A stretch of 54,604 bases of DNA, from positions 1,171,882-1,226,485 of the forward strand of contig NC_057746.1 in NCBI RefSeq assembly GCF_004010195.1, written 5' to 3'. The notes beneath the pieces were generated by a model, which saw only the letters and a program-made list of their open reading frames with translations, did not search any database and was not told the origin of the DNA. The DNA comes from Chiloscyllium plagiosum (taxonomy: Eukaryota). A program made the translations under genes and the position numbers. Positions 4,190 to 43,128 of the stretch are shown here, in pieces; position 1 is the stretch's first letter; each line of letters starts with the position of its first letter.

Positions 4190-4612
4190 GAATGGCGATG
4201 ACTGAGGTGCGAGGGAAAAGGGGATAAACGGCTGCGATGCCGGCTCGCGCCGTCAGAGGCTGCTATTTAAACGAGCGCACCTCCAATTGCAGCGCAGCTC
4301 GCGCGCTCTCAGATTTAAATTCCCGAACATTGGGCGCCAAGCGGATCAGAACTACATCTCCCGGCAGGCATCGCGGGTATGCCCTCCCTTGATTCCATAC
4401 AGTCTCCACTCACTACGCAGGCGCGCGGCCGACATGCGGCATGGGTAATGTAGTTCGGAGCGGAGTTGCGAGCGGTTTGGGTGATTTGAGCTGAGTCCCT
4501 GTGGAGATTTTAAACAACCTCAGTGAAGGGGGAGTTTTCTGGGCTTGGGGCCCAGAGTCCAGTCACGTTTAAGGAGATGGCATGTCCCTCCCTCCGTCAA
4601 ACACAGGTAGGT
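4190..4612. promoter_or_regulatory. CpG-island promoter with two inverted ZNF143/Staf-type motifs; candidate plus-strand first exon ending at 4606
   Basis: The densest non-repeat CpG patch I found in the window. ACTACATCTCCCGGCAGGC at 4351 (+) and ACTACATTACCCATG at 4454-4440 (-); NRF1-like GCAGGCGCGC ~4417; donor-like CAG|GTAGGT at 4607. Confidence 0.7.
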
Positions 4613-8477: not shown

Positions 8478-8977
8478 NNNNNNNNNNNNNNNNNNNNNNN
8501 NNNNNNNNNNNNNNNNNNNNNNNNNNNNNNNNNNNNNNNNNNNNNNNNNNNNNNNNNNNNNNNNNNNNNNNNNNNNNNNNNNNNNNNNNNNNNNNNNNNN
8601 NNNNNNNNNNNNNNNNNNNNNNNNNNNNNNNNNNNNNNNNNNNNNNNNNNNNNNNNNNNNNNNNNNNNNNNNNNNNNNNNNNNNNNNNNNNNNNNNNNNN
8701 NNNNNNNNNNNNNNNNNNNNNNNNNNNNNNNNNNNNNNNNNNNNNNNNNNNNNNNNNNNNNNNNNNNNNNNNNNNNNNNNNNNNNNNNNNNNNNNNNNNN
8801 NNNNNNNNNNNNNNNNNNNNNNNNNNNNNNNNNNNNNNNNNNNNNNNNNNNNNNNNNNNNNNNNNNNNNNNNNNNNNNNNNNNNNNNNNNNNNNNNNNNN
8901 NNNNNNNNNNNNNNNNNNNNNNNNNNNNNNNNNNNNNNNNNNNNNNNNNNNNNNNNNNNNNNNNNNNNNNNNNNNNN
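8478..8977. other. Assembly gap of exactly 500 N, probably a placeholder scaffolding gap
   Basis: Round length; the other gaps are 34587-34781 (195 N) and 47347-48152 (806 N). Confidence 0.9.
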
Positions 8978-9031
8978 ATACTCCAGTTCCAGGTTTTACT
9001 TTATGTGTGAGACATTGAAACTGTTACTTAC

Positions 9032-9280
9032 ATTTCGGTTCCGGGGAGCCGCGGGACAGGTTCTTCCAAACATTTAAATTCTGTTTCATGATGGCGATAT
9101 TGGCTGAGATCCCCGCCTCTCCTCCCTGCATGACATGATTGTTAAACTCAGGGATCCGGGCCACCTCCTTCTTCAGGTTGAAATCCATGTATAAAACCTC
9201 ATCTCCGTCATCCTCCAGGTCAAACTGTTTATCGGGGCTGCTGTCCTGAGCCATGAAGACCGAGAGCTGTTCATGTTGGT
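9032..9280 (-). CDS. MHC class II alpha chain, exon 2 (alpha-1 peptide-binding domain)
   Basis: 249-bp phase 1-1 exon with (CT)n-CACAG acceptor and T|GTAAGT donor. Translation (Y)QHEQLSVFMAQDSSPDKQFDLEDDGDEVLYMDFNLKKEVARIPEFNNHVMQGGEAGISANIAIMKQNLNVWKNLSRGSPEPK contains the class II alpha DGDE..Y.DF, PEF and N62/N69 hallmarks and resembles nurse shark class II alpha as I recall it. Confidence 0.95.
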
Positions 9281-9939: not shown

Positions 9940-10250
9940 ATGTAGATGCTGGAGAGATGGAGTCGAAAAGCACAGCCAGTCAGGAAGCATCCAAGGAGCA
10001 GGAGAATCAACATTTCAGGCATAAGCCTTTCATCAGGAATGTGGGTGGGAAGAGGGCTGAGAGATAAATGGGAGGGTGGGACTGGGAGGTAGGTAGCTGG
10101 GAAGGCAATAGGTAGTTGCAGGTGGGGGTGATGGTGATAGGGTGGAGTGGATAAGTGGGAAGGAAAATGGACAAGTTTTGAAGGTGGTGCCAAGTTGGAG
10201 GGTTGGATCTGGGATAAGGTAGGGGGAGAGGAAATGAGGAAACTCTGGGA
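9940..10250 (-). mobile_element. Penelope-like 3' tail fragment
   Basis: Reverse complement resembles 1015-1350; degenerate hammerhead core at ~10007-10036. Confidence 0.65.
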
Positions 10251-10269
10251 TGGGCATTGGCGACTGTGG

Positions 10270-13200
10270 GGCCCTCTATAGAATAACACTTGGGGCAGGG
10301 CTCTTGTTCCTACACTGGAGTGGTTGCAGCCTCTGTGTTCCCTGTACCTCCAAGGGCTTCATCGCCCTTTTCTCATTTGACCAAAATGTTCGGAGTGCAA
10401 TGTTCCGTTCACACTGAAGTGAGCACTGGGGCATGTGCAGCGCTGCATCGAACATGTAGAGGAAGGCAGTGTTCTTCCTGAAGAGTGAGTGGGTGGTGCA
10501 CCTCTCCCTGGAGAAGGGGCTTAGTGTCAGTGGCACGTTCTTGCCTGTCGACCCTCTGGAAGTAGTTGTTCAGAGGGTCATTTTATCGAACGTTCCACCC
10601 ATTGATGGTGATAGGGTGGAGTGGATAAGTAGGAAGGAAAATGGACAGGTAGGACAGGTTTTGAGGGTGGTGCCAAGTTGGAGGGTTGGATCTGGGATAA
10701 GGTAGGGGGAGGGGAAATGAGGAAACTCTGGGATGGGCATTGGCGACTGTGGGGCCCTCTATACAGTAACACCTGGGGCAGGGCTCTTGTTCCTACACCG
10801 GAGTGGTTTCAGCCTCTGTTCCCTGTACCTCCAAGGGCTTCATCACCCTTTTCACATTTGACCAAAATGTTCGGGGTGCAATGTTCCATTCACCCTGAAG
10901 TGAGCACTGGGGCATGTGCAGCACTGCATCGAACATGTAGAGGAAGGCAGTGTTCTTCCTGAAGAGTGAGTGGGTGGTGCACCTCTCCCTGGAGAAGGGG
11001 CTTACTGTCAGTGGCACGTTCCTGCCTGTCGACCCTCTGGAAGTAGTTGTTCAGAGGGTCATTTTATCGAACGTTTCACCCATTTTACCATCTGAGCTGC
11101 TTCTCTCCCACATCCACAGTTTGGGGAGGTGAGCTCTGGTGTGATGAAGCTGTTGCTGTGTCTGAAGGAGGCCCACCTGAGACATTTACTCCTTCTGATG
11201 GGTTTTTGTCTGTTGGCCCAGGGAGAGGTCTTGGAAGGTGTGTTTACAGTAGAGTAGTATTAGGGTGAGGCTTACTGGGTGTTCATGGAGGGTATGCGGT
11301 GTCACTATGGAGGAACTGGCATCCCTCGAAGGGCTGCTGCCAGCCCCCCCGAGCGTTCACGGCTGGCACTGTTACCTGTCCTCTCACAATACCACCTCAG
11401 CTTCCTGCGAAAGGAGCTACCTCGGCCCAGGATGCCAGGAAGATTCCCTGGGTGACCCTGAGACTTCTGGGACTCAGTATGGTGCGACTTCCCTTCTGGA
11501 GGATAGCGATCCCCAGGCCTGTCGAGAAATTGTGCGTTTTGGAGCCTGGCCTGAGGCAGATATGACTGGAAGCGGTAGAGAATTCCACTGGTCCATATAC
11601 AACTGGACTCTGTCTCAGTTAAAACTGCTTTAAAAACTCCTGGAGTTCCCCGATGGGGATGAGGGAGACCTGAGGCCCGTCGATGATAAATATGAGTGAA
11701 CGGGCAGTGCCCCCCAGCTTCCCCAGTCCCTCCCTTATCCTAAAACTTGTGAAAGAAAACAGAGGGAGGATGGTTGAGATGGGTGGGGTAGCAGCGAGAC
11801 AGTGGAGAGTTGGAGATGTCTCTTGTTCCCCACCCTCTTGGAAAAGGCACCATTCCTCAGGGTTAGAGGGACAGGGGAATCCGGTACTAACAACACCTCC
11901 CCACGGGTGAGGGAGTAGTTTCCCCTGGAAACCCCTCTCCCTCCTCACCAGGGGAGGAGGACATGAACACCCCCAACCCCCACCTATAGTTCATTGCAAC
12001 CAGATCAGGCCTCTCAAGGGTGAGGTGGGCGTGGCAGCTGAAGTCTTGCTGACGCCACAGGAACTGGAGGCTCTTGAGGTTTTCAGTGTGCCTACTGGGG
12101 ACTGAGGTGGACATTGTTACCCTGAGGTTATCCTAGATTGTAGCGCTGAAAGGGCAGGCCTCCCTGCTCTCCTAGGCCTTTATTTTAGGCTCCTCTGCCC
12201 TTACTACAGACCTTTATCCAGACACAGAGCCAGGAGTGGAGCAGGTTTCCAAACTGATGCCACCCAGAGGACCTGACATTTTAATCAACGTTTTAGTTGA
12301 GCCTGGTGTCATCCAGAACTTCGAGGGCTCTGCAAGGGATCCTGCTGCTGCTGATCCTATGGATGGGGTCAAGGCAGGGGTATGTCTAACCGGTGACCCC
12401 CTCGCCCCGCACCCGCTGTGGGGGTAGGGGTCAGTGGTCAGAGGCAACAATCTGGAGGAGCAGTGGGTGTTGGTTGGGAGCACTGCTGAGTTAGACAGAG
12501 CGGAGGGAGACGTGGTGCTCGTAGACAAGGTCTCCTTCATCCTCATCGGGGAACTCGAGTTTTTAAAGCAGTTTTAACTAAGACAGAGTCCAGTTGTATA
12601 TGGACTAGTGGAATTCTCTACCGCTTCCAGTCATATCTGCCTGGCAGCTATTGGCAGGCCCTGGAATGGGCAAGAACATAAAGAGGCTGTACCAGGGATT
12701 CCTTATCAGCATCCTCAGAGTGGAAGGGAAAAAGAGCCCTTTTGCCCCTGCTCAGTAAGTTAGGTTTCATTGTTTTAACTGGTGATGGTGGTGGTACATA
12801 CTGCAGCCATAAAGCCTCAATGTCAATGGCAGCAGAAAGGCCTGGCACAGATTTGGTATGCTCTTGCTCCTTGGGGAATGGGAGTATGCAGTGAGCCTCC
12901 TACAAGAAACCCCATACCGTTTCCGGAGATCAAGCTGCACAGTTCCTGGAGTGGCAGTGGAAGGGTCTTACTGAGTCACCTAGCTTCCAGTTCTGGCAGG
13001 GATGGCTACCTTGTTGGTCCCTTTCTTTCAGGTGGAGATTGAGGGTCAAGGGATGTGTACCAGGCCCGTGTGCTCCAGCTTATGCTTCATTTCAGAGACA
13101 TGTGAATGTATGTGTGCCTTGTATGGGACCTGACTAGACCACATGGTTCTTCGAGGAACTGTCTAATCTTCTTAGCTCCATCGATGAGGGCAAACTCATC

Positions 13201-23417: not shown

Positions 23418-23484
23418 ATTTCACAGCCAAGGTTCCTTGAAGTAAAACCAGCATTAATATAGTAATGTAACATCCAGCTTCCAT
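23418..23484 (-). CDS. MHC class II alpha chain, exon 1 (signal peptide)
   Basis: AGAATGG start context; MEAGCYITILMLVLLQGTLAVK plus T then GTGAGT donor (67 nt, phase 1). Splicing to exon 2 makes T+AC = Tyr and keeps the frame. Hydrophobic leader directly downstream of an X-Y-TATA promoter. Confidence 0.92.
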
Positions 23485-23618
23485 TCTGCTTGCGGATGTA
23501 ACCAGATTTCACCCTCTGGAGAGCTCTTAATCTGTTGTGAGTGTGCTCTCTCTCTGTGCGAAGTTCAGTTTCTGTCTGACTGTAGTGAGCATTACTTGGT
23601 AATTGACAGATGTTGTAT

Positions 23619-23690
23619 TATTTATAAACCAATCACCAATCGAGATCTCCTTCATCAGCTGTTTCCAGGTGAAATTCAAACTTGTTCTGT
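23619..23690 (-). promoter_or_regulatory. MHC class II alpha proximal promoter (S-X-Y and TATA)
   Basis: Minus strand: weak S-like AGAAC ~23688; X1 CCTGGAAACAGCTG 23669-23656; 19-nt spacer; Y GTGATTGGTT 23636-23627, preceded by a second GATTGG; TATAAATA 23626-23619; about 140 bp upstream of the ATG. Confidence 0.88.
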
Positions 23691-25289: not shown

Positions 25290-25333
25290 AACCAATCTGA
25301 TCACAGCCTGACTGACCATCAGCTGTCTTTGGG
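25290..25333 (-). promoter_or_regulatory. Distal X-Y module in the same orientation as the alpha gene
   Basis: X1 CCCAAAGACAGCTG 25333-25320 (continues ATG, as in the proximal promoter); 20-nt spacer; Y CAGATTGGTT 25299-25290. Confidence 0.65.
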
Positions 25334-26250: not shown

Positions 26251-27049
26251 AGAATTAATTTCTACCATTAACCCAGGAACAAACATTAGGGGAGATTAGT
26301 CTACATCAGGGGCTGGAGTTTTCAGTCCCCAGATGGGACAAACTGGGTCAAACATGGTGGCTGGGGCACCACCTAGAACTCTCTCACTGTCCCATTTCTG
26401 GTACTGGTTATCTACATCAAAGTGATCTGAGGGAATTGATCAGCTCAGTTTATAAAAATTCATTTACAGATGAGGGCATTGCTGGTCAGACCAACATTTA
26501 TTTATCTATTATAATTGCCGTCAGAGGGCAGTTAAAAGTCAACTACATTGGCTATGGGTCTGGAATATGTGTAGGCCAGACCAGGTGAGGATGGTTGTTC
26601 CCTTCCCTGAATAAGATGGGCTTCTCAAACAATTGACAATAGTTTCATGGTCATCATTAGATTCTTAATTCTAGATTTTTATTGAATTCAAAATCTACCA
26701 TTTGCCATGATGGGATTTGAACCTCTGTCCCCAGAACTTTACCTGTGTCTTTGGATAACTGGTTTTTGATACAGAGAATATCAACAGCGCGGGCTCAATT
26801 CCAGCACAGGTTGAGGTTACCATGAAGGTCTCTCCTTCTCTCACCTCTTGTGAGATAGCAGCCTATGGTCTGGTAAGACTATGGTGACTTTATTGACAAG
26901 GCACAGGGGTTCCAGCAGCTTGCAAAGAACCTAAGGCCTGTCGGATGCCCTGCTAAATTGACAGCTGAAGCAGGTATAATTTTGTAACTGTGACAACAAT
27001 GTGCGGTCTCTAACCACAACAACAAAGCACCATCAGGAACGGAATGGCA

Positions 27050-28250
27050 GACCATTTATCAGTTGGCAGGAAGGTTCTGGAATGCGTCAAGTGCATGAGC
27101 AAACCATTGCTGTAAAGTGAGCTAGGAAGGTATGGGAGTTACGTAGGGGGAAGGGAGAAGAGGTGGGGGGCGAACTCCAAGAACTCAGACGCCACTTAAA
27201 TATCTGCCACCAAGGAGGCACTCGACTTGCAAATTGCCACCCTAGGACAGAAATTGAAGCACTGAACAAGGATTCTGTGCACCTGGCCCACCACAGCAGG
27301 CTCATTTCCCTGGAGATGTCTGAGCCACCTTAATGATGAATTAGCACCGAGAAACACCCTAGCGACAGGCTCTCCCAAGTGAGCATTCACTGTTACCGTG
27401 GCCCATGAAGTCTTCAACTCAAGTTCATCCGAGGGTTCTTTTGCTAAGCTGTGTGGGATATCCCAGTCGTTGTAGCATCCATGTAGTTACAGATGTCCTC
27501 TTCACAAGTGTCTCTGACTGGATCAGCCTTTCAAAAGATACAGCTTCACAACAGTACAGGACAATGGATTTTGCATCAGTAGCTGGCTTCCCAAGGGGCC
27601 AGGGCTTTATAGACTGAACCCAGGAGCCCTGAAGAACTCAGCGGGTATGTTCATTAACAGGAGAGTCTACCATCAGTGCTCAGCCGGAGTGTGACCATCA
27701 ACAGAGTTTCCTACAGGATTAGGCATCCTTGCCATGCAGCTCCCTTTACACGGACTCCGGGCTGACTCTGCATTTTCACCTGACCCCTCTGTTGGATAGT
27801 GGGACTCCAGTTGCCTCCAAACATTCCTGTGAGGATTCCAAACTGAGTCCCAGGACATTACAGCAAGGGTAACCTGGACACCAGGACACTCTTTGAACAG
27901 ACTGTATACCAGAGGCCTACTCAGGGAGATTTTGATGCCTTGAGCACACTCTGGTGCACCAATGCAATATTCATCTTTTTGGGTATCCAGATTGGTTGAT
28001 ATGTGCTGCATGCTACACAACACTGTACAGCAGTGGAGTGCTCTGCTAAATGAGATGGTCAACAAAGGAGGCCCTGTATCCTTGGAGGATGAAGTGGTGC
28101 ATGATTAGGAAGAAGGGCAGGGACTCAGATGCAGAGGATTCTGATGTTCAGGGTGGATTGCGACATCATGATGCTGGGGATGTGAAGGTGGATCCAGGCT
28201 GGCTTGCTGCGACCTACTGCATGTTCACAAAATAGACAGCAGGTGAATGC
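27050..28250 (+). mobile_element. Decayed PIF/Harbinger transposase (HARBI1-like)
   Basis: FASVAGFPRGQGFID (~27569; cf. AGFP..xGAID), FINRRVYH (~27650; cf. NRKGxHS), SGAPMQYS (~27950), MCCMLHN (28001; cf. ACCxLHN), in the expected order with stops and frameshifts. Confidence 0.7.
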
Positions 28251-28424
28251 AGACATTAGCTGGATCAGCAGACCATCAGTATTCTGTTTTCTCAGGCAGC
28301 AGAGCAACAAGTCTTGGGAATGTGGGATGATTGTGATTTTACTGAGGTTCACTTCACGCTGGGCCAGTTTAAAAGGGATATCAAACATTTATCCAACAAC
28401 GAGATAAACTGTGATAATAACTAG

Positions 28425-30168: not shown

Positions 30169-30499
30169 CAACTCTGTCTTGCTGGAGCTCTGAAACCAGG
30201 ATACAAAGTGGTTCAAGGGCCTTGTCAATCTGAATATACCTGAGGTTCTGTTTACATTTGTAGAAATCCTAACCATTACTGAGAGTTTCTCATTTCCCTG
30301 TATCACTGGCACAGTAATTGTTATTCATTGGGATATGGATGAGACGTGTGGGAGGGAGCATTTGAGTGACCTCCCTTTCCACTATGATGTTAACACTGAC
30401 TACATCTTCACATTCCCACTTTCCCCATTTCACCTTCCCAATACAAATCCTTATCCTTTCCCCAACCTTCGCACAGTTGTATGAAGTAATTCATTATTG

Positions 30500-30690
30500 T
30501 GGTACTAGAGGGCGCCATGACATTACCGTGCTGTACAGAAAAATGAGACTATCCCAACAAGTTCACCCAGAGACAGGTGACTCTTCAGGAAGCTGGATTG
30601 TTATTGGCCAGCGCCAGGATTTAAGTCGGTTTGTATTTATTTTTTGTGTGTACTTCTCGTCTGTGGTTTCACTTCTGGGGACTTTCCAAA
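30500..30690 (+). promoter_or_regulatory. Inverted distal S-X-Y module with upstream CTCF-like motif and downstream RUNX, IRF-like and NF-kB sites
   Basis: ACTAGAGGGCGC 30504-30515; S-like GAGACT 30545-30550; X1 CCCAGAGACAGGTG 30566-30579 with X2 TGACTC; 20-nt spacer; Y GTTATTGGCC 30600-30609; TGTGGTTTCACTT 30662; GGGACTTTCC 30678-30687. Confidence 0.8.
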
Positions 30691-30859
30691 CCCTCAGCGC
30701 CTCTGATAAATCACAATGAAATGTAACCCTATCCAATCCTTAGATCACTGCTGTCCTGTGAGTACTCTAATTATAGCCTGAAGTTTCCAGCCACTGGTTA
30801 CCTCACTTCGTGAAGTGTCTATTCACCCACATCAACCCCAGACTGACTGTAGAGCAATG

Positions 30860-37940: not shown

Positions 37941-38699
37941 ACTAGGGAGGGAGAGGCATTGTGTTGCTCTTTCAAGGAGCCATCGCATGTCCCGTCCGCC
38001 TCATGGGTGTTCTGTGTCACTGCACAATGTCTAAAATTCGTTCTAAGGATTGCGGTGCTGTGGTCAAGACCTGCATTCGTTCCCCATCCCTAATTGCGTA
38101 GAAAGAAAAGGTCATTCTCAATGCAACTACATGGTGTTGTTGCTCCTTTCGAAAGGAAGTCAAGAGCAGCATGGGTGTGCATTGTTAGTCCATGTAAACC
38201 AAACCTGACAGATTTCCTTCCATAAACCAGCAGTTTTTAAACCACAGTCAGGTATTTTATTGCCATCTTTACTATTGCTAGTTCTTTTATTCCCGATTTT
38301 TATTAAATCAGTTGAATTTAAATTAAGGTGGAATTTGGTCTCATGCCTCCAGATAATTAGACCAGATCTCTGGGTGAGTTCTGAAGAAGTGCGAGATCAG
38401 ATTTGAAATATTAACTCAGTTTTTTCTGTCTGCACAGGTGTTGCCAGACTTGCTGAGTTTCTTCAGCATCATCTTTGTTTGCTTTGGCCAGTCTGAGCCA
38501 TTAATATTAAATCATTGACCAAAGACAAGTTTTGGAGGTTTGACTGAAGTAAAAGAGACACTGCAAGGAAAAATCCTTTACACTATGTTAAGATGTGATT
38601 AGCTGATGTAAGATTGGGTTAACTACAGACTTTATAAAGATTAGACAGCCTGCCAACAGGCCGTGCCTTTTAATATTTTCCATTCCATAAATATCCAGA

Positions 38700-39020
38700 A
38701 TCAAACCTTCACCAGCCTAATCTACCCAGTGACTGATGACTCCTATTTGTGATTGGCCGTGTGGTAACCACAGTAATGTTTACATCCCATGACGGTGTCA
38801 GTCAGACTGTATAATGTGGAGTCAGGTTGATAGGGACTTTCCAAATCCATCTCCAACTGTGAACACACTAAATAAACCACAAGAGTCAGTGTTAATCCTC
38901 AATCCAGTCTCAGGAACAGGGACTTTCCAACGAAACCGTGAATTACCGGTAAGACATAACCTGCCTCTCCCCCAACACTAAACAAACCATATTTATCTGC
39001 TGTCACCAAAGGAAGTCAAT
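38700..39020 (+). promoter_or_regulatory. Inverted distal S-X-Y module with 10-bp X-Y spacer and tandem NF-kB sites
   Basis: S-like CAAACCT 38702-38708; 16-nt spacer; X1 CCCAGTGACTGATG 38725-38738 with X2 TGACTC; Y GTGATTGGCC 38749-38758; RUNX palindrome TGTGGTAACCACA 38760; GGGACTTTCC at 38833 and 38919; AAAGGAAGT ~39008. Confidence 0.72.
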
Positions 39021-39764
39021 GTCAATTCTCATGCTGCAAAGGCTGACATTCATTCTCCACCCATCATTGCCCTTATAGCATTTGGTGATAACAACACAGA
39101 ATGGAATGAGGCTATTTGGCCGAATGAAACTGCATCAGTATTTTCAAACAGTAATCTAGTTATTCACACCCACCTATCTTTCCATTATTCCCTGCATTCT
39201 TTTCTCTTTTTTTGAGTATTTATTTTTTTCCCTTTTGAAAGTTACCGTTGAATCTGCATCCACTGCCCTTGCAGACAGTACATTCCAAATCCTAACCACA
39301 CATTGTGGATAAAGTAAGGTTTCATCTTGCCTTTGGCTTTTTACCCACTTATTAACCCTATATTGCCATTTGAAGCCATTTTTCCTTTTAAACTCCCTTT
39401 GACCCCTTAACTTTAAACCTGCTGAGCGTTTCTAGTATCCTTTATTTTTATTACAGATTTCCAGTTTTGGTTTTGTACAGTCAGTAAGCTGCAGCGTGCT
39501 GACCTTTGCTGGGCGACAATTCCAAGCTGACTTTACCCAGTAATTCAAGGATACTCTGCAGGACTCAGTAGTTAATTGGTCAAAACTGGCTAAGTATTGT
39601 TTCAACCGCAGTTTGATTGAGTAACAAGGGCGATGTGAGCAGTGATATTGAATGGGAGCCAGGGCCTTTCACATGAAACCGTTCCTAACTGTTACACACC
39701 CATTTGCTAGCGCTCTGAGTCTCCCAGCAAATATAGAGCAGTGAACATCAATATCCATGTGGAT

Positions 39765-40449: not shown

Positions 40450-42180
40450 CTGCTAGCACCCACTTGGGAAATGCCCAGGTGGACAGAGTGGGCCACTTCC
40501 CAGAGGACTGCCAGAGGAAGCCTCCAGACCTGGGAAGCCTGGTCCAAGGTTGGCGCCCAGGACCAGCTTATTACAGGATATGACAGCCAGGACGAGGTCA
40601 AATAGGGGGAGTATGACATTCAGCTCATCACCCTTCCAAAGTGAGAATCCTGGCTCTCGCAGAGGATCAGGACTGCAAATGTAGGGTTGCTAGGACATCC
40701 TTATCTCTCTAACTAAGTACCACTCTGCAATCCACTGCAACCCTGCTGTCAGTCTCATTCATTGCTCAGCACTTCCAACCCGTGACACCTTCAGTCTGTT
40801 GTGTCTTGCAGGTACAGCCAGTATTTCCATAAACTCTGTGGAGACGCGCCTGACTCTCCCAGAGTCACCCCCTCACCCCCGATCCCTGGGGACAAAAGTC
40901 CCAATGTCTCAGAGAAGCAAGGCTGCTGCATACCTAGGTGGGAACCAATGCTCCCTCTAAGCTGCCCGGCTGTGCGTGCACACACAGCTGTTCTAAGGAT
41001 CTGCACAACACAGGTCAGCGGTCAGCCAACACCGTTCACTGTACTAATCTCCTCGTCAGGAATCAGTGTCACACACACACACACCCCTTGGAAATCAGGG
41101 GAAAGCTGGAGGGAATGTTGTGCTGAGAGAGTGGGAACACATTTTAGTGAGCTCCTCACTATGACAGCTCCTCAGCTGGCCCAGGAAGACATGCTCCAGG
41201 TCACTGACACTAGGAGGGCTGGCAGAAACTGTGCTGGAAACTGGGCACTGACATCTCAGGGTACACTCCATTTCTCTCTCCCTCTCTCTCTCACACACAC
41301 ACTCACCATGTTCAAGGACATTGGCATCTAACATGTAAGAACCCTCATGGCATTACCTTTCAGCCACTTACAGGGCACTCCTATACTTCAGTGCTGGTCC
41401 TCAGACTGCACTGGCAACTCTGAGTGTAACACTGCAGCAAGGTCAGTTTGTGCTCAGGGACACACACCCAGCTCATAGACTGGAACAGGCTGCAGCTGTG
41501 GGCTCTTCATCATTGTCATAGCACTAACTCAGTCTGAGGATACTCACATCATCCCTGCCTTGCATTGGCTTTACCTTGCCTTTTTGCGACCTCATTCAGA
41601 GATACCAGGTTCATTTCACATGTGTCCAGTTGTGCTTTTTAGTACATACACAAGGCCAAGGAGTTTGTCAGAGTTGTCAGTGGTCCTCAGTCATGGCAGA
41701 GATCTTCACTCAGGCATTCCCAGCACAAACTCAAGGGCAACCTCAGGTTACCAGTCCAGGTCTTGCTTGGGGGTGTCAGAGTCAGGATCCTCTCCTTATA
41801 AGAGGTGAGGAGTTGAATGTCAGGCAGCACGCTCCCTGAGTTGGGTATTTCTGCCGTATCGTGGGCTGTTTTTGTCCAGGACAGAGAGGCAGACAGGTAT
41901 TTCAGAAGGTGCAAGTAATTCTGCCAGTTATTATTATTGGTGCAGGTGGTGAGATGTCCTGGGTGAAAGAGTAGACAGCACAGAGGAGATGCCGGGTTTA
42001 TAGTGTCAGGGATTGGGGAGGGTGAGAGTGAGTGAGGGAAGGTGCTGCAGGCAGTAGTGAGAATGGTTGAGTGTGTGCCTTGGTGAGAGGTGGGTATATT
42101 GTCAGGTGGATGGTGAGTGTGAGATATCGGAGAGAGGATCTTACTGTGGTGCACTGGAGAAAGGCATTGAGCAGATGGCA
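40450..42180 (-). mobile_element. Possible decayed Harbinger Myb/SANT-like accessory gene region
   Basis: Minus 41877-41775 reads KTAHDTAEIPNSGSVLPDIQLLTSYKERIL, resembling the 'TGGG..LTPxEERxL' segment that follows Harbinger Myb/SANT domains. Weak similarity only. Confidence 0.4.
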
Positions 42181-42373
42181 GGTTTTAATGGATGGTATTG
42201 TCACTTTCAGTTCCAGATTTGATGACTTGAATTTAAGTTCCACCAGGTACAGAGCTAGATTTGATCCCATGTGATCAGATTATCAGCCTGGGCACAGGGA
42301 TTACTAGCATGGTAACATGACCACTTCACCACTGTCTGCCTTATTCCTCCTTCCTAAACATCATTGTAAAAAT

Positions 42374-42440
42374 ATGAACTCACTGAGAGAGTTCTCTCAG
42401 CAACAGATGACAGTCTGTGTTCTGCTGATCCTATTGGTTG
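42374..42440 (+). promoter_or_regulatory. S-X-Y module, either an inverted distal enhancer or the promoter of a divergent gene
   Basis: S-like TGAACT 42375-42380; 15-nt spacer; X1 CTCAGCAACAGATG 42396-42409 (HLA-DRA X1 is CCTAGCAACAGATG); 20-nt spacer; Y CCTATTGGTT 42430-42439. Confidence 0.8.
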
Positions 42441-42905
42441 ACGGTGTAGCTGCCTGAGCTTGTCTCCAGTGGGGTTGGTCAGGTGAACAAACAGAAGCTG
42501 TGGCTTTAGTCTGTTACCCTTGTCTTCTCTCACACACAGTTCACATGGACTCTCTCCAAACTCTGACGCATGCAACACACAAATGCTTATTTGGTAATAT
42601 TCTTTGAAACAGTTTTGATTCAAACAATACTAAAATTAATTTCAGTTTCAGCCATCAAACTCACTTATTTCTGGTGGTAAAGACACAGTCTGAAGTCAAG
42701 GTGAAGAGATGGTCATGTTACTCTGACCCCCATTAAGGTATGGACTGAAAAGTGATAAATTACATTGACCTGGTCATCTCCAACATGAGAGATACTTATC
42801 ACTGTCTCTAAGTATTCAATAGCATTATCATCACTGAATCCTACACTGTATTGAGGGCATAAACTAGGGGTTATCTCTGAATAGAAACCAACATCACAGC
42901 ACATC

Positions 42906-43128
42906 TTCAGTACTGACTCTCTGACAGTGCAGCATTCCCTCAGTACTGACCCTCTGACAGTGTGGCATTCCCTCAGTACTGACCCTCTGACAGTGTGGCA
43001 CTCCCTCAGTACTGACCATCTAACAGTGTGGCACTCCCTCAGTACTGACCCTCTGACAGTGTAGCACTCCCTCAGTACTGACCATCTAACAGTGTGGCAC
43101 TCCCTCAGTACTGACCCTCTGACAGTGC
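42906..43128. repeat. 33-bp minisatellite, about 6.7 copies
   Basis: Unit CTCAGTACTGACCCTCTGACAGTGTGGCACTCC; units 4 and 6 share the variant CCATCTAA. Confidence 0.92.

Follow-up and report, generated by a model that had tools for sequence, protein, structure and literature searches.

The window, by which we mean the whole 54,604-nucleotide stretch analyzed here (C37:1171882-1226485, C37 being contig NC_057746.1), belongs to the shark MHC class II cluster. Exons 1 and 2 of a class II alpha gene lie inside it on the minus strand, together with the gene's own X-Y promoter. Exon 1 (23418-23484), which encodes the leader, has an ATG at 23484 and a splice donor and is identical to P0040 at 21 of 22 residues, while exon 2 (9032-9280) encodes the alpha1 domain (PF00993, E values of 2.3e-10 and 7.5e-14). 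The proximal X-Y pair of the alpha promoter (23629-23669, minus strand) has a 22-nt gap and is also kept in a second alpha promoter, on C101167. A second, weaker X-Y module, for which a paralog search returned nothing, lies 1.7 kb further upstream than the proximal pair, in the same orientation as the alpha gene (25292-25333, minus strand). Positions 8978 to 34586 contain no N gap, and the alpha promoter and the distal module that is the subject of this report (module A) therefore stand on continuous sequence.

At 13 kb past the right end of the window are the 3′ exons of a minus-strand beta gene, and a neighboring beta-2 exon matches class II beta proteins of Chiloscyllium at 95 to 99% identity. 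The modules described below are thus placed between the 3′ end of beta and the 5′ end of alpha, in an interval with several gaps. The alpha2 and transmembrane exons expected to the left of exon 2 were absent from the 220 kb examined there, and the order of the locus is doubtful wherever a gap intervenes. Over C37 1.18 to 1.35 Mb, class II exons are dispersed and lie in either orientation, with alpha2 exons at 1288 kb (+) and 1353 kb (−) and beta 3′ exons at 1240 kb (−), a pattern pointing to mis-ordered contigs. At window positions ~4200 to 4500, to the left of a 500-N gap (8478-8977), the minus strand is CpG-rich and promoter-like, with motifs that resemble ZNF143 and NRF1 sites; such a stretch beside the gap, where alpha intron 2 is expected, suggests a scaffold join.

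Several minor features were recorded in the same sequences. Degraded stretches that to the eye resemble Harbinger-type transposon remnants lie at 27000-28400, which is low-copy by read depth, and at 40450-41850; a Pfam search of the frames of both stretches gave no match. Positions 10129-11084 hold a 481-bp duplication in tandem (94%), and 42907-43127 a minisatellite with a 33-bp unit (6.7 copies). On C92835 (L134), class II beta exons (−) lie ~5 kb from class I-like exons (+) that contain stop codons. A genome search with the PF00969 profile gave no match even though beta genes are present, which is a miss of the profile, and an Rfam search also gave none.

Motifs of module A

Module A is a conserved island (30437-30730, plus strand) whose X box lies 7,082 bp upstream of the alpha ATG without an intervening gap. 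It is oriented opposite to the alpha gene and directed away from it, in agreement with the earlier note on this DNA, which had called it inverted. Its X1 box, CCCAGAGACAGGTG (30566-30579), is a predicted RFX site with no mismatch to a degenerate class II consensus; the earlier note placed it one mismatch from the HLA-DQB-type 14-mer. X2, TGACTCT (30578-30584), is a predicted CREB/ATF site that overlaps the end of X1; a TGA at this position occurs in all six copies of the module, although the X2 motif is degenerate and hence weak. The Y box, an inverted CCAAT and predicted NF-Y site (30600-30609), has its ATTGG core at 30603-30607. The distance from X1 to ATTGG is 23 nt, compared with 22 nt in the mouse H2-Eb promoter according to the primers given in PMC4374748, and the spacing had rightly been described as canonical.

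On the 3′ side of Y, a RUNX-type core, TGTGGTT (30662-30668), overlaps an IRF/ISRE-type site, GTTTCACTTCTG (30666-30677), within which TTTCACTT occupies 30667-30674. The RUNX-type core is the weakest element of the module. The IRF-type site is kept in the paralogs and is abutted by a kB site, GGGACTTTCC (30678-30687), which ends 80 nt after the Y core. The X box, ATTGG, TGTGGTT, TTTCACTT, and GGGACTTTCC were all found on the plus strand where the earlier note had placed them. The stretch known as the H-2K ISRE has the 12 letters of the IRF-type site. These letters recur in the H2-K promoter fragment printed in PMC4374748. Beyond the kB site, a conserved block (30688-30730) contains TGATAA (GATA-type, 30704-30709) and AAATCACAA and is identical at 27 of 30 positions between the two A copies. 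All six modules carry AAATC(A/G)CAA 3′ of kB (30707-30715 in the window), ~20 nt away in A and 5 nt away in B, which is possibly a further site, of GFI1- or C/EBP-like type.

The S box of the proposed S-X-Y arrangement did not hold up. At the S position, 15 nt before X (30545-30550), module A has GAGACT, identical in both A copies, which matches neither GACCTG of H2-Eb nor AACCTG of H2-K. The B modules have GCACTG or GCGCTG there, as against GACCTG of H2-Eb, and the mammalian S box is likewise absent from the S position of the shark proximal class II promoters.

The motifs of the module are real and beyond a chance match. The window contains three zero-mismatch and four one-mismatch X-Y pairs, whereas 150 simulated windows averaged 0.0 and 0.04, under a consensus that was slightly loosened once the shark modules had been seen. 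A zero-mismatch pair occurred in none of the simulated windows, nor did X-Y plus kB within 125 nt. The kB pattern has four matches in the window, against 0.68 expected, and TTTCACTT shows a marginal excess (7 versus 3.6). The RUNX 7-mer taken by itself, by contrast, is present at the level of chance (21 versus 22.5). In the 3.56 Gb of the genome, the pattern X-N22-24-ATTGG occurs 15 times (reversed control, 2), seven of them within one 113-kb stretch, namely the six modules and the alpha promoter, and the IRF-kB composite has eight matches (control, 0), six of which are the A and B modules; because both patterns were fitted to modules already seen, these counts measure rarity elsewhere and not independent discovery. 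In 408 kb of called sequence, 10 of 15 kB-pattern sites fall in A, B, or E2 modules, eight of them flagged by script and two, in the E2 copy, placed from the alignment of that copy.

Paralogous copies and their conservation

Six copies of the module, two of type A and four of type B, lie within 113 kb of the class II cluster. Module A aligns over 305 columns, at 75% identity, with a paralog located at C37:1089397-1089697 (minus strand), while the flanks of the two do not align; besides itself, its 241-bp element matches the genome only once, at C37:1089.5 kb (76%). B1 to B4 are at C37 1094.8, 1133.8, 1148.0, and 1164.8 kb; they are 92 to 98% identical to B4 and account for four genome matches. 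The A and B modules are alike in their motifs alone: between A and B4, the blocks X, Y, and IRF-kB are identical at 49 of 58 positions and the spacers at 27 of 122 (Fisher p 1e-15, for blocks picked after inspection of the modules). This restriction of identity to motifs is the same pattern as in the mammalian class II X-Y boxes, in which spacer length is fixed and spacer sequence is free, as stated in a section of PMC4381081.

The X box keeps 22 or 23 of 23 positions within families and 19 or 20 of 23 between them. The IRF-type and kB sites are conserved as well as the X box across all six copies. The X-ATTGG gap is 23 nt in every copy and the distance from Y to IRF ranges from 55 to 67 nt; a TGTGGT core is present between Y and kB in all six, at no fixed position. 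These copies represent two sequence families and not six independent cases, the independent evidence being the contrast of A with B and the comparison of A with A. An AP-1 site, TGACTCA, is present 5′ of the IRF block in B1 and B4, altered in B3, and deleted in B2 (L065-L068).

DNA read depth over 30496-30752 is 22 in organism A and 18 in organism B, like that of other unique bins, while repeat bins reach 10^4 to 10^6. Single contigs cross the module in DNA runs of both organisms; the run labeled X1 is perhaps not independent of the assembly, and the organism B contig over 30135-30938 has 28 differing letters and 15 gap letters. At single-copy depth, the module is not a high-copy LTR, the finding that would have spoken against the earlier proposal; A has two genome matches in all. 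The element is low-copy, selectively conserved, and of regulatory type.

Module A is one of three window islands (30437-30730, 38689-39306, and 42347-42704) that are duplicated collinearly, in inverted form, at C37:1089.7, 1081.9, and 1073.7 kb; between the islands, no unique sequence could be aligned. Island E2 (38689-39031, plus strand) has an X-like box (38725-38738) followed 13 nt on by ATTGG, two kB sites (38833 and 38919), and RUNX-type cores; the X-like box and both kB sites are identical in its paralog near C37:1081.4-1081.9 kb. The 13-nt gap, one helical turn under the usual 23, occurs in both copies (38725-38756 and L148). Island C (42347-42704, plus strand) has X at 42396-42409 and, after 23 nt, ATTGG at 42433-42437, without kB. 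Its paralog, C37:1073327-1073668, shares 82% identity with it and shows a deletion of 8 nt in X and a substitution in the Y core.

Neither the A copy nor the B modules had an alpha exon 1 beside them in the sequence searched, and the gaps around them leave their target genes uncertain. At the second alpha locus, C101167, the proximal X-Y is present, but the 32 kb upstream of it, including 4.4 kb of N, contained no such distal module. A linkage of C101167 to B1, considered on the basis of a 76% match, was dropped: the match ends in what is by eye a LINE-like tail, with no B module beyond it.

Comparison with class I promoters and mammalian distal enhancers

The combination of kB, ISRE, and SXY is described in passages of PMC3837245 as the class I set, and the same source treats kB and ISRE as characteristic of class I and missing from class II promoters, which are switched through CIITA. 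According to the primers in PMC4374748, the mouse H2-K promoter reads GTTTCACTTCTG, AACCTG, 15 nt, and X, while H2-Eb has GACCTG, 15 nt, X, 22 nt, and ATTGG; in the part of that study that deals with specificity, the S region sets that of NLRC5. In the shark, X-Y units are present upstream of four of eight class I loci examined; upstream of the other four no X-Y promoter was found, including in the 50 kb above C37:5.74 Mb. AACCTG stands exactly 15 nt 5′ of X in four of seven shark class I units (five tabulated and two read from a separate scan) and in none of 12 class II units, module A included. The units that carry it, often in tandem, are L100:3988 and 4092 (−), L104:1093 (−), and L107:5808 (+). 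This distribution suggests that the NLRC5-type S box is as old as the jawed vertebrates.

Module A has class I kinds of site but neither the class I order nor the class I S box. The likeness to the class I and B2M promoters (enhancer A kB, ISRE, and SXY, under NLRC5) extends to the same three kinds of site and to an IRF-type 12-mer that is identical. However, the ISRE-type site is 5′ of X in H2-K and in the shark class I promoters, while in module A the IRF and kB sites are 3′ of Y and AACCTG is absent. Its X core, ACAG, is the one seen in class II units, whereas the five tabulated class I units have ACTG, TCTG, or CCTG. Class I elements are, moreover, proximal, while the shark module is distal, with no coding start found 3′ of it. 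In one shark class I promoter (L104), a kB site separates tandem X-Y units. The description of the module as class I-like is thus correct for the kinds of site it contains and incorrect for their order and for the S box.

The distal elements of HLA-DRA and of mouse Ea are inverted with respect to their genes. Distal S-Y and XL enhancers are established in mammals, as is the DR/DQ super-enhancer, according to parts of PMC7866136 and PMC7041702. Like the mammalian S′-Y′ enhancers (HLA-DRA at −2.3 kb; Ii S′-Y′ and Y″-S″; sites #2, #4, #6, and #8; XL), the shark modules are additional X-Y modules with canonical spacing that lie kilobases upstream of a class II alpha gene or scattered among class II genes, and some of the mammalian elements are inverted, Ii Y″-S″ being an example in Table 1 of PMC1802633. 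The shark module differs in that it has no recognizable S box, lies farther out, at 7 kb, and in each A and B copy carries an IRF-kB block 55 to 67 nt after Y. The HLA-DRA element is bound by RFX and CIITA; in the shark module such binding is predicted. Module A most likely behaves like a distal S′-Y′ enhancer, judged by its arrangement, although it lacks the S box of that class in the strict sense. The likeness to the HLA-DR/DQ super-enhancer is that predicted CIITA platforms are clustered between a beta and an alpha gene; in the account given in PMC7041702 the latter is defined by H3K27ac, CIITA ChIP, deletions, and looping, and the shark cluster by motifs.

NF-kB binding has also reportedly been described, in a 1989 paper, in the upstream B-cell control region of E-alpha. 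Part of PMC2187825 describes a kB-like enhancer required for optimal induction of mouse A-alpha. These mouse elements, at A-alpha and E-alpha, resemble module A in setting an NF-kB-type input beside a class II X-Y pair, but they are single, whereas the shark has a repeated, selectively conserved IRF-kB composite on distal X-Y modules. In the literature covered, which lies largely outside the subscription journals, no title or abstract dealt with a shark class II promoter or enhancer, and the words "promoter" and "CIITA" are absent from the main text of PMC8010645.

A probable distal inverted enhancer and its alternatives

We consider it probable that module A is a distal, inverted RFX/NF-Y/CIITA enhancer with IRF and NF-kB input. 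The sequence-level basis consists of its motifs, spacing, orientation, linkage to the alpha promoter, motif-restricted conservation, and low copy number. Position, paralogous conservation, and single-copy depth lend good support to the class II enhancer that the earlier note had predicted, and the inflammatory input it proposed is a fair reading of IRF-type and kB sites that are kept like the X box. Alpha exon 1 is the gene start nearest to the module and its likely target. The inverted orientation is compatible with an enhancer role, given that the S-Y module of RAB4B is active in both orientations (PMC1802633), and the distal S′-Y′ of HLA-DRA at −2.3 kb is bound by RFX and CIITA in results contained in PMC2677874 and PMC1904273. 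RFX5 and RFXAP domains were found in the genome. In a run guessed to be RNA (X15), contigs cover the leader exon (23494-23530, depth of 72.5) and none lies in the module bin; a contig at 30143-30325 (depth of 3.8) could reflect DNA or upstream transcription. A raw-read RNA run (X22) had no reads anywhere on the whole stretch, and neither run weighs for or against the enhancer.

By analogy with mammals, RFX would occupy X1, CREB/ATF X2, and NF-Y the Y box, forming a platform that may recruit CIITA rather than NLRC5. IRF and NF-kB factors on the abutting sites could supply a direct cytokine or danger-signal input, making the module inducible or stronger in antigen-presenting cells; both the binding of factors and the inducibility are modeled on mammalian elements. 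Eviction of a nucleosome and then looping to the alpha promoter, and possibly to the neighboring beta gene, would follow as they do in mammals, and inflammatory signals might thereby directly boost antigen presentation through the module.

Module A could instead be the proximal promoter of an unannotated plus-strand transcript, either a noncoding RNA or a short-exon gene whose start would lie 50 to 100 nt after Y, a reading we regard as unlikely. Canonical X-Y modules do lie 50 to 100 bp upstream of start sites, as described in portions of PMC2677874, and the block 3′ of kB is kept between the A copies; the IRF and kB sites would then sit at or just past the start. However, the B copies carry a different 3′ sequence, short ATG frames 3′ of the module are not alike between copies, and neither a leader nor an exon 2 of class II beta was found 3′ of it. 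Pfam gave no match in 85 frames of the window and right flank, these being frames of at least 75 amino acids, which short exons escape, and in the region of the paralog 148 frames of the same minimum length gave only retroelement or subthreshold matches; these scans drew on 336 listed low-repeat frames, apart from those of L041, L042, L034, and L033 and some of those of the window and of L026. Quite unlikely, in our judgment, is a descent of the modules from duplicated class II promoters, of which they would be inactive relics that segmental duplication carried along. The X flank AGTTCA, together with the context of Y in B, does resemble the alpha promoter type, the B copies lie inside duplicated units of several kilobases, and the X box is lost in the paralog of island C. 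Relics should nevertheless decay evenly, yet what persists between A and B is limited to the motifs and the 23-nt gap. The IRF-kB block is, in addition, absent from the two alpha promoters and the beta proximal promoter examined and was thus not inherited from the present-day proximal promoters.

LTRs often contain kB sites, and the surroundings of module A are dense in repeats, so that the module might be part of an LTR or another mobile element and its kB and IRF sites incidental. All genome matches (two for A and four for B) nonetheless fall in the class II cluster, and depth is single-copy in DNA runs from two organisms, which makes this origin extremely improbable. An NLRC5-dependent element of class I type, transferred from or modeled on a class I or B2M promoter and acting within the class II region, would account for the 12-letter identity with H2-K, for the presence of the class I set of sites (passages of PMC3837245), and for the parallel with the kB site of L104. 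It is very unlikely all the same: the AACCTG of four of seven shark class I units is missing, the X core is of the class II type, the sites run X-Y-IRF-kB, and the mouse MHC has no NLRC5-bound intergenic sites in the results reported in a section of PMC4374748.

If the X-Y-IRF-kB unit is what the distal enhancer reading takes it to be, class II would be wired directly to inflammation in the oldest MHC-bearing lineage, and distal inverted X-Y enhancers would extend well past mammals. Together, module A, the four B modules, and islands E2 and C may make up a locus-control-like cluster in the interval from class II beta to alpha genes. It is tempting, but at present doubtful, to see here a locus control region of repeated X-Y-IRF-kB enhancers whose wiring, like the distal inverted X-Y enhancers 5′ of alpha, was ancestral to jawed vertebrates, in keeping with the ancestral state that the earlier note held possible, and was pared down in mammals, the S box having already separated class I (NLRC5-type) from class II; shark class II would then answer to NF-kB and IRF directly, like class I. 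The 150-bp elements, their natural variants (A, B, E2, and C), and class I promoters of the same genome as controls offer material on the origin of CIITA and NLRC5 specificity and for dating long-range control of class II.

A beta promoter at L038:4940-5135 (C37 ~1006.8-1007.0 kb) has about eight tandem CCAAT boxes and no X-Y match. The idea that beta promoters lack X-Y and rely on distal modules was dropped, as three other beta promoters have X-Y. In L136, L137, and L141, the X-Y pair is followed by several CCAAT boxes.
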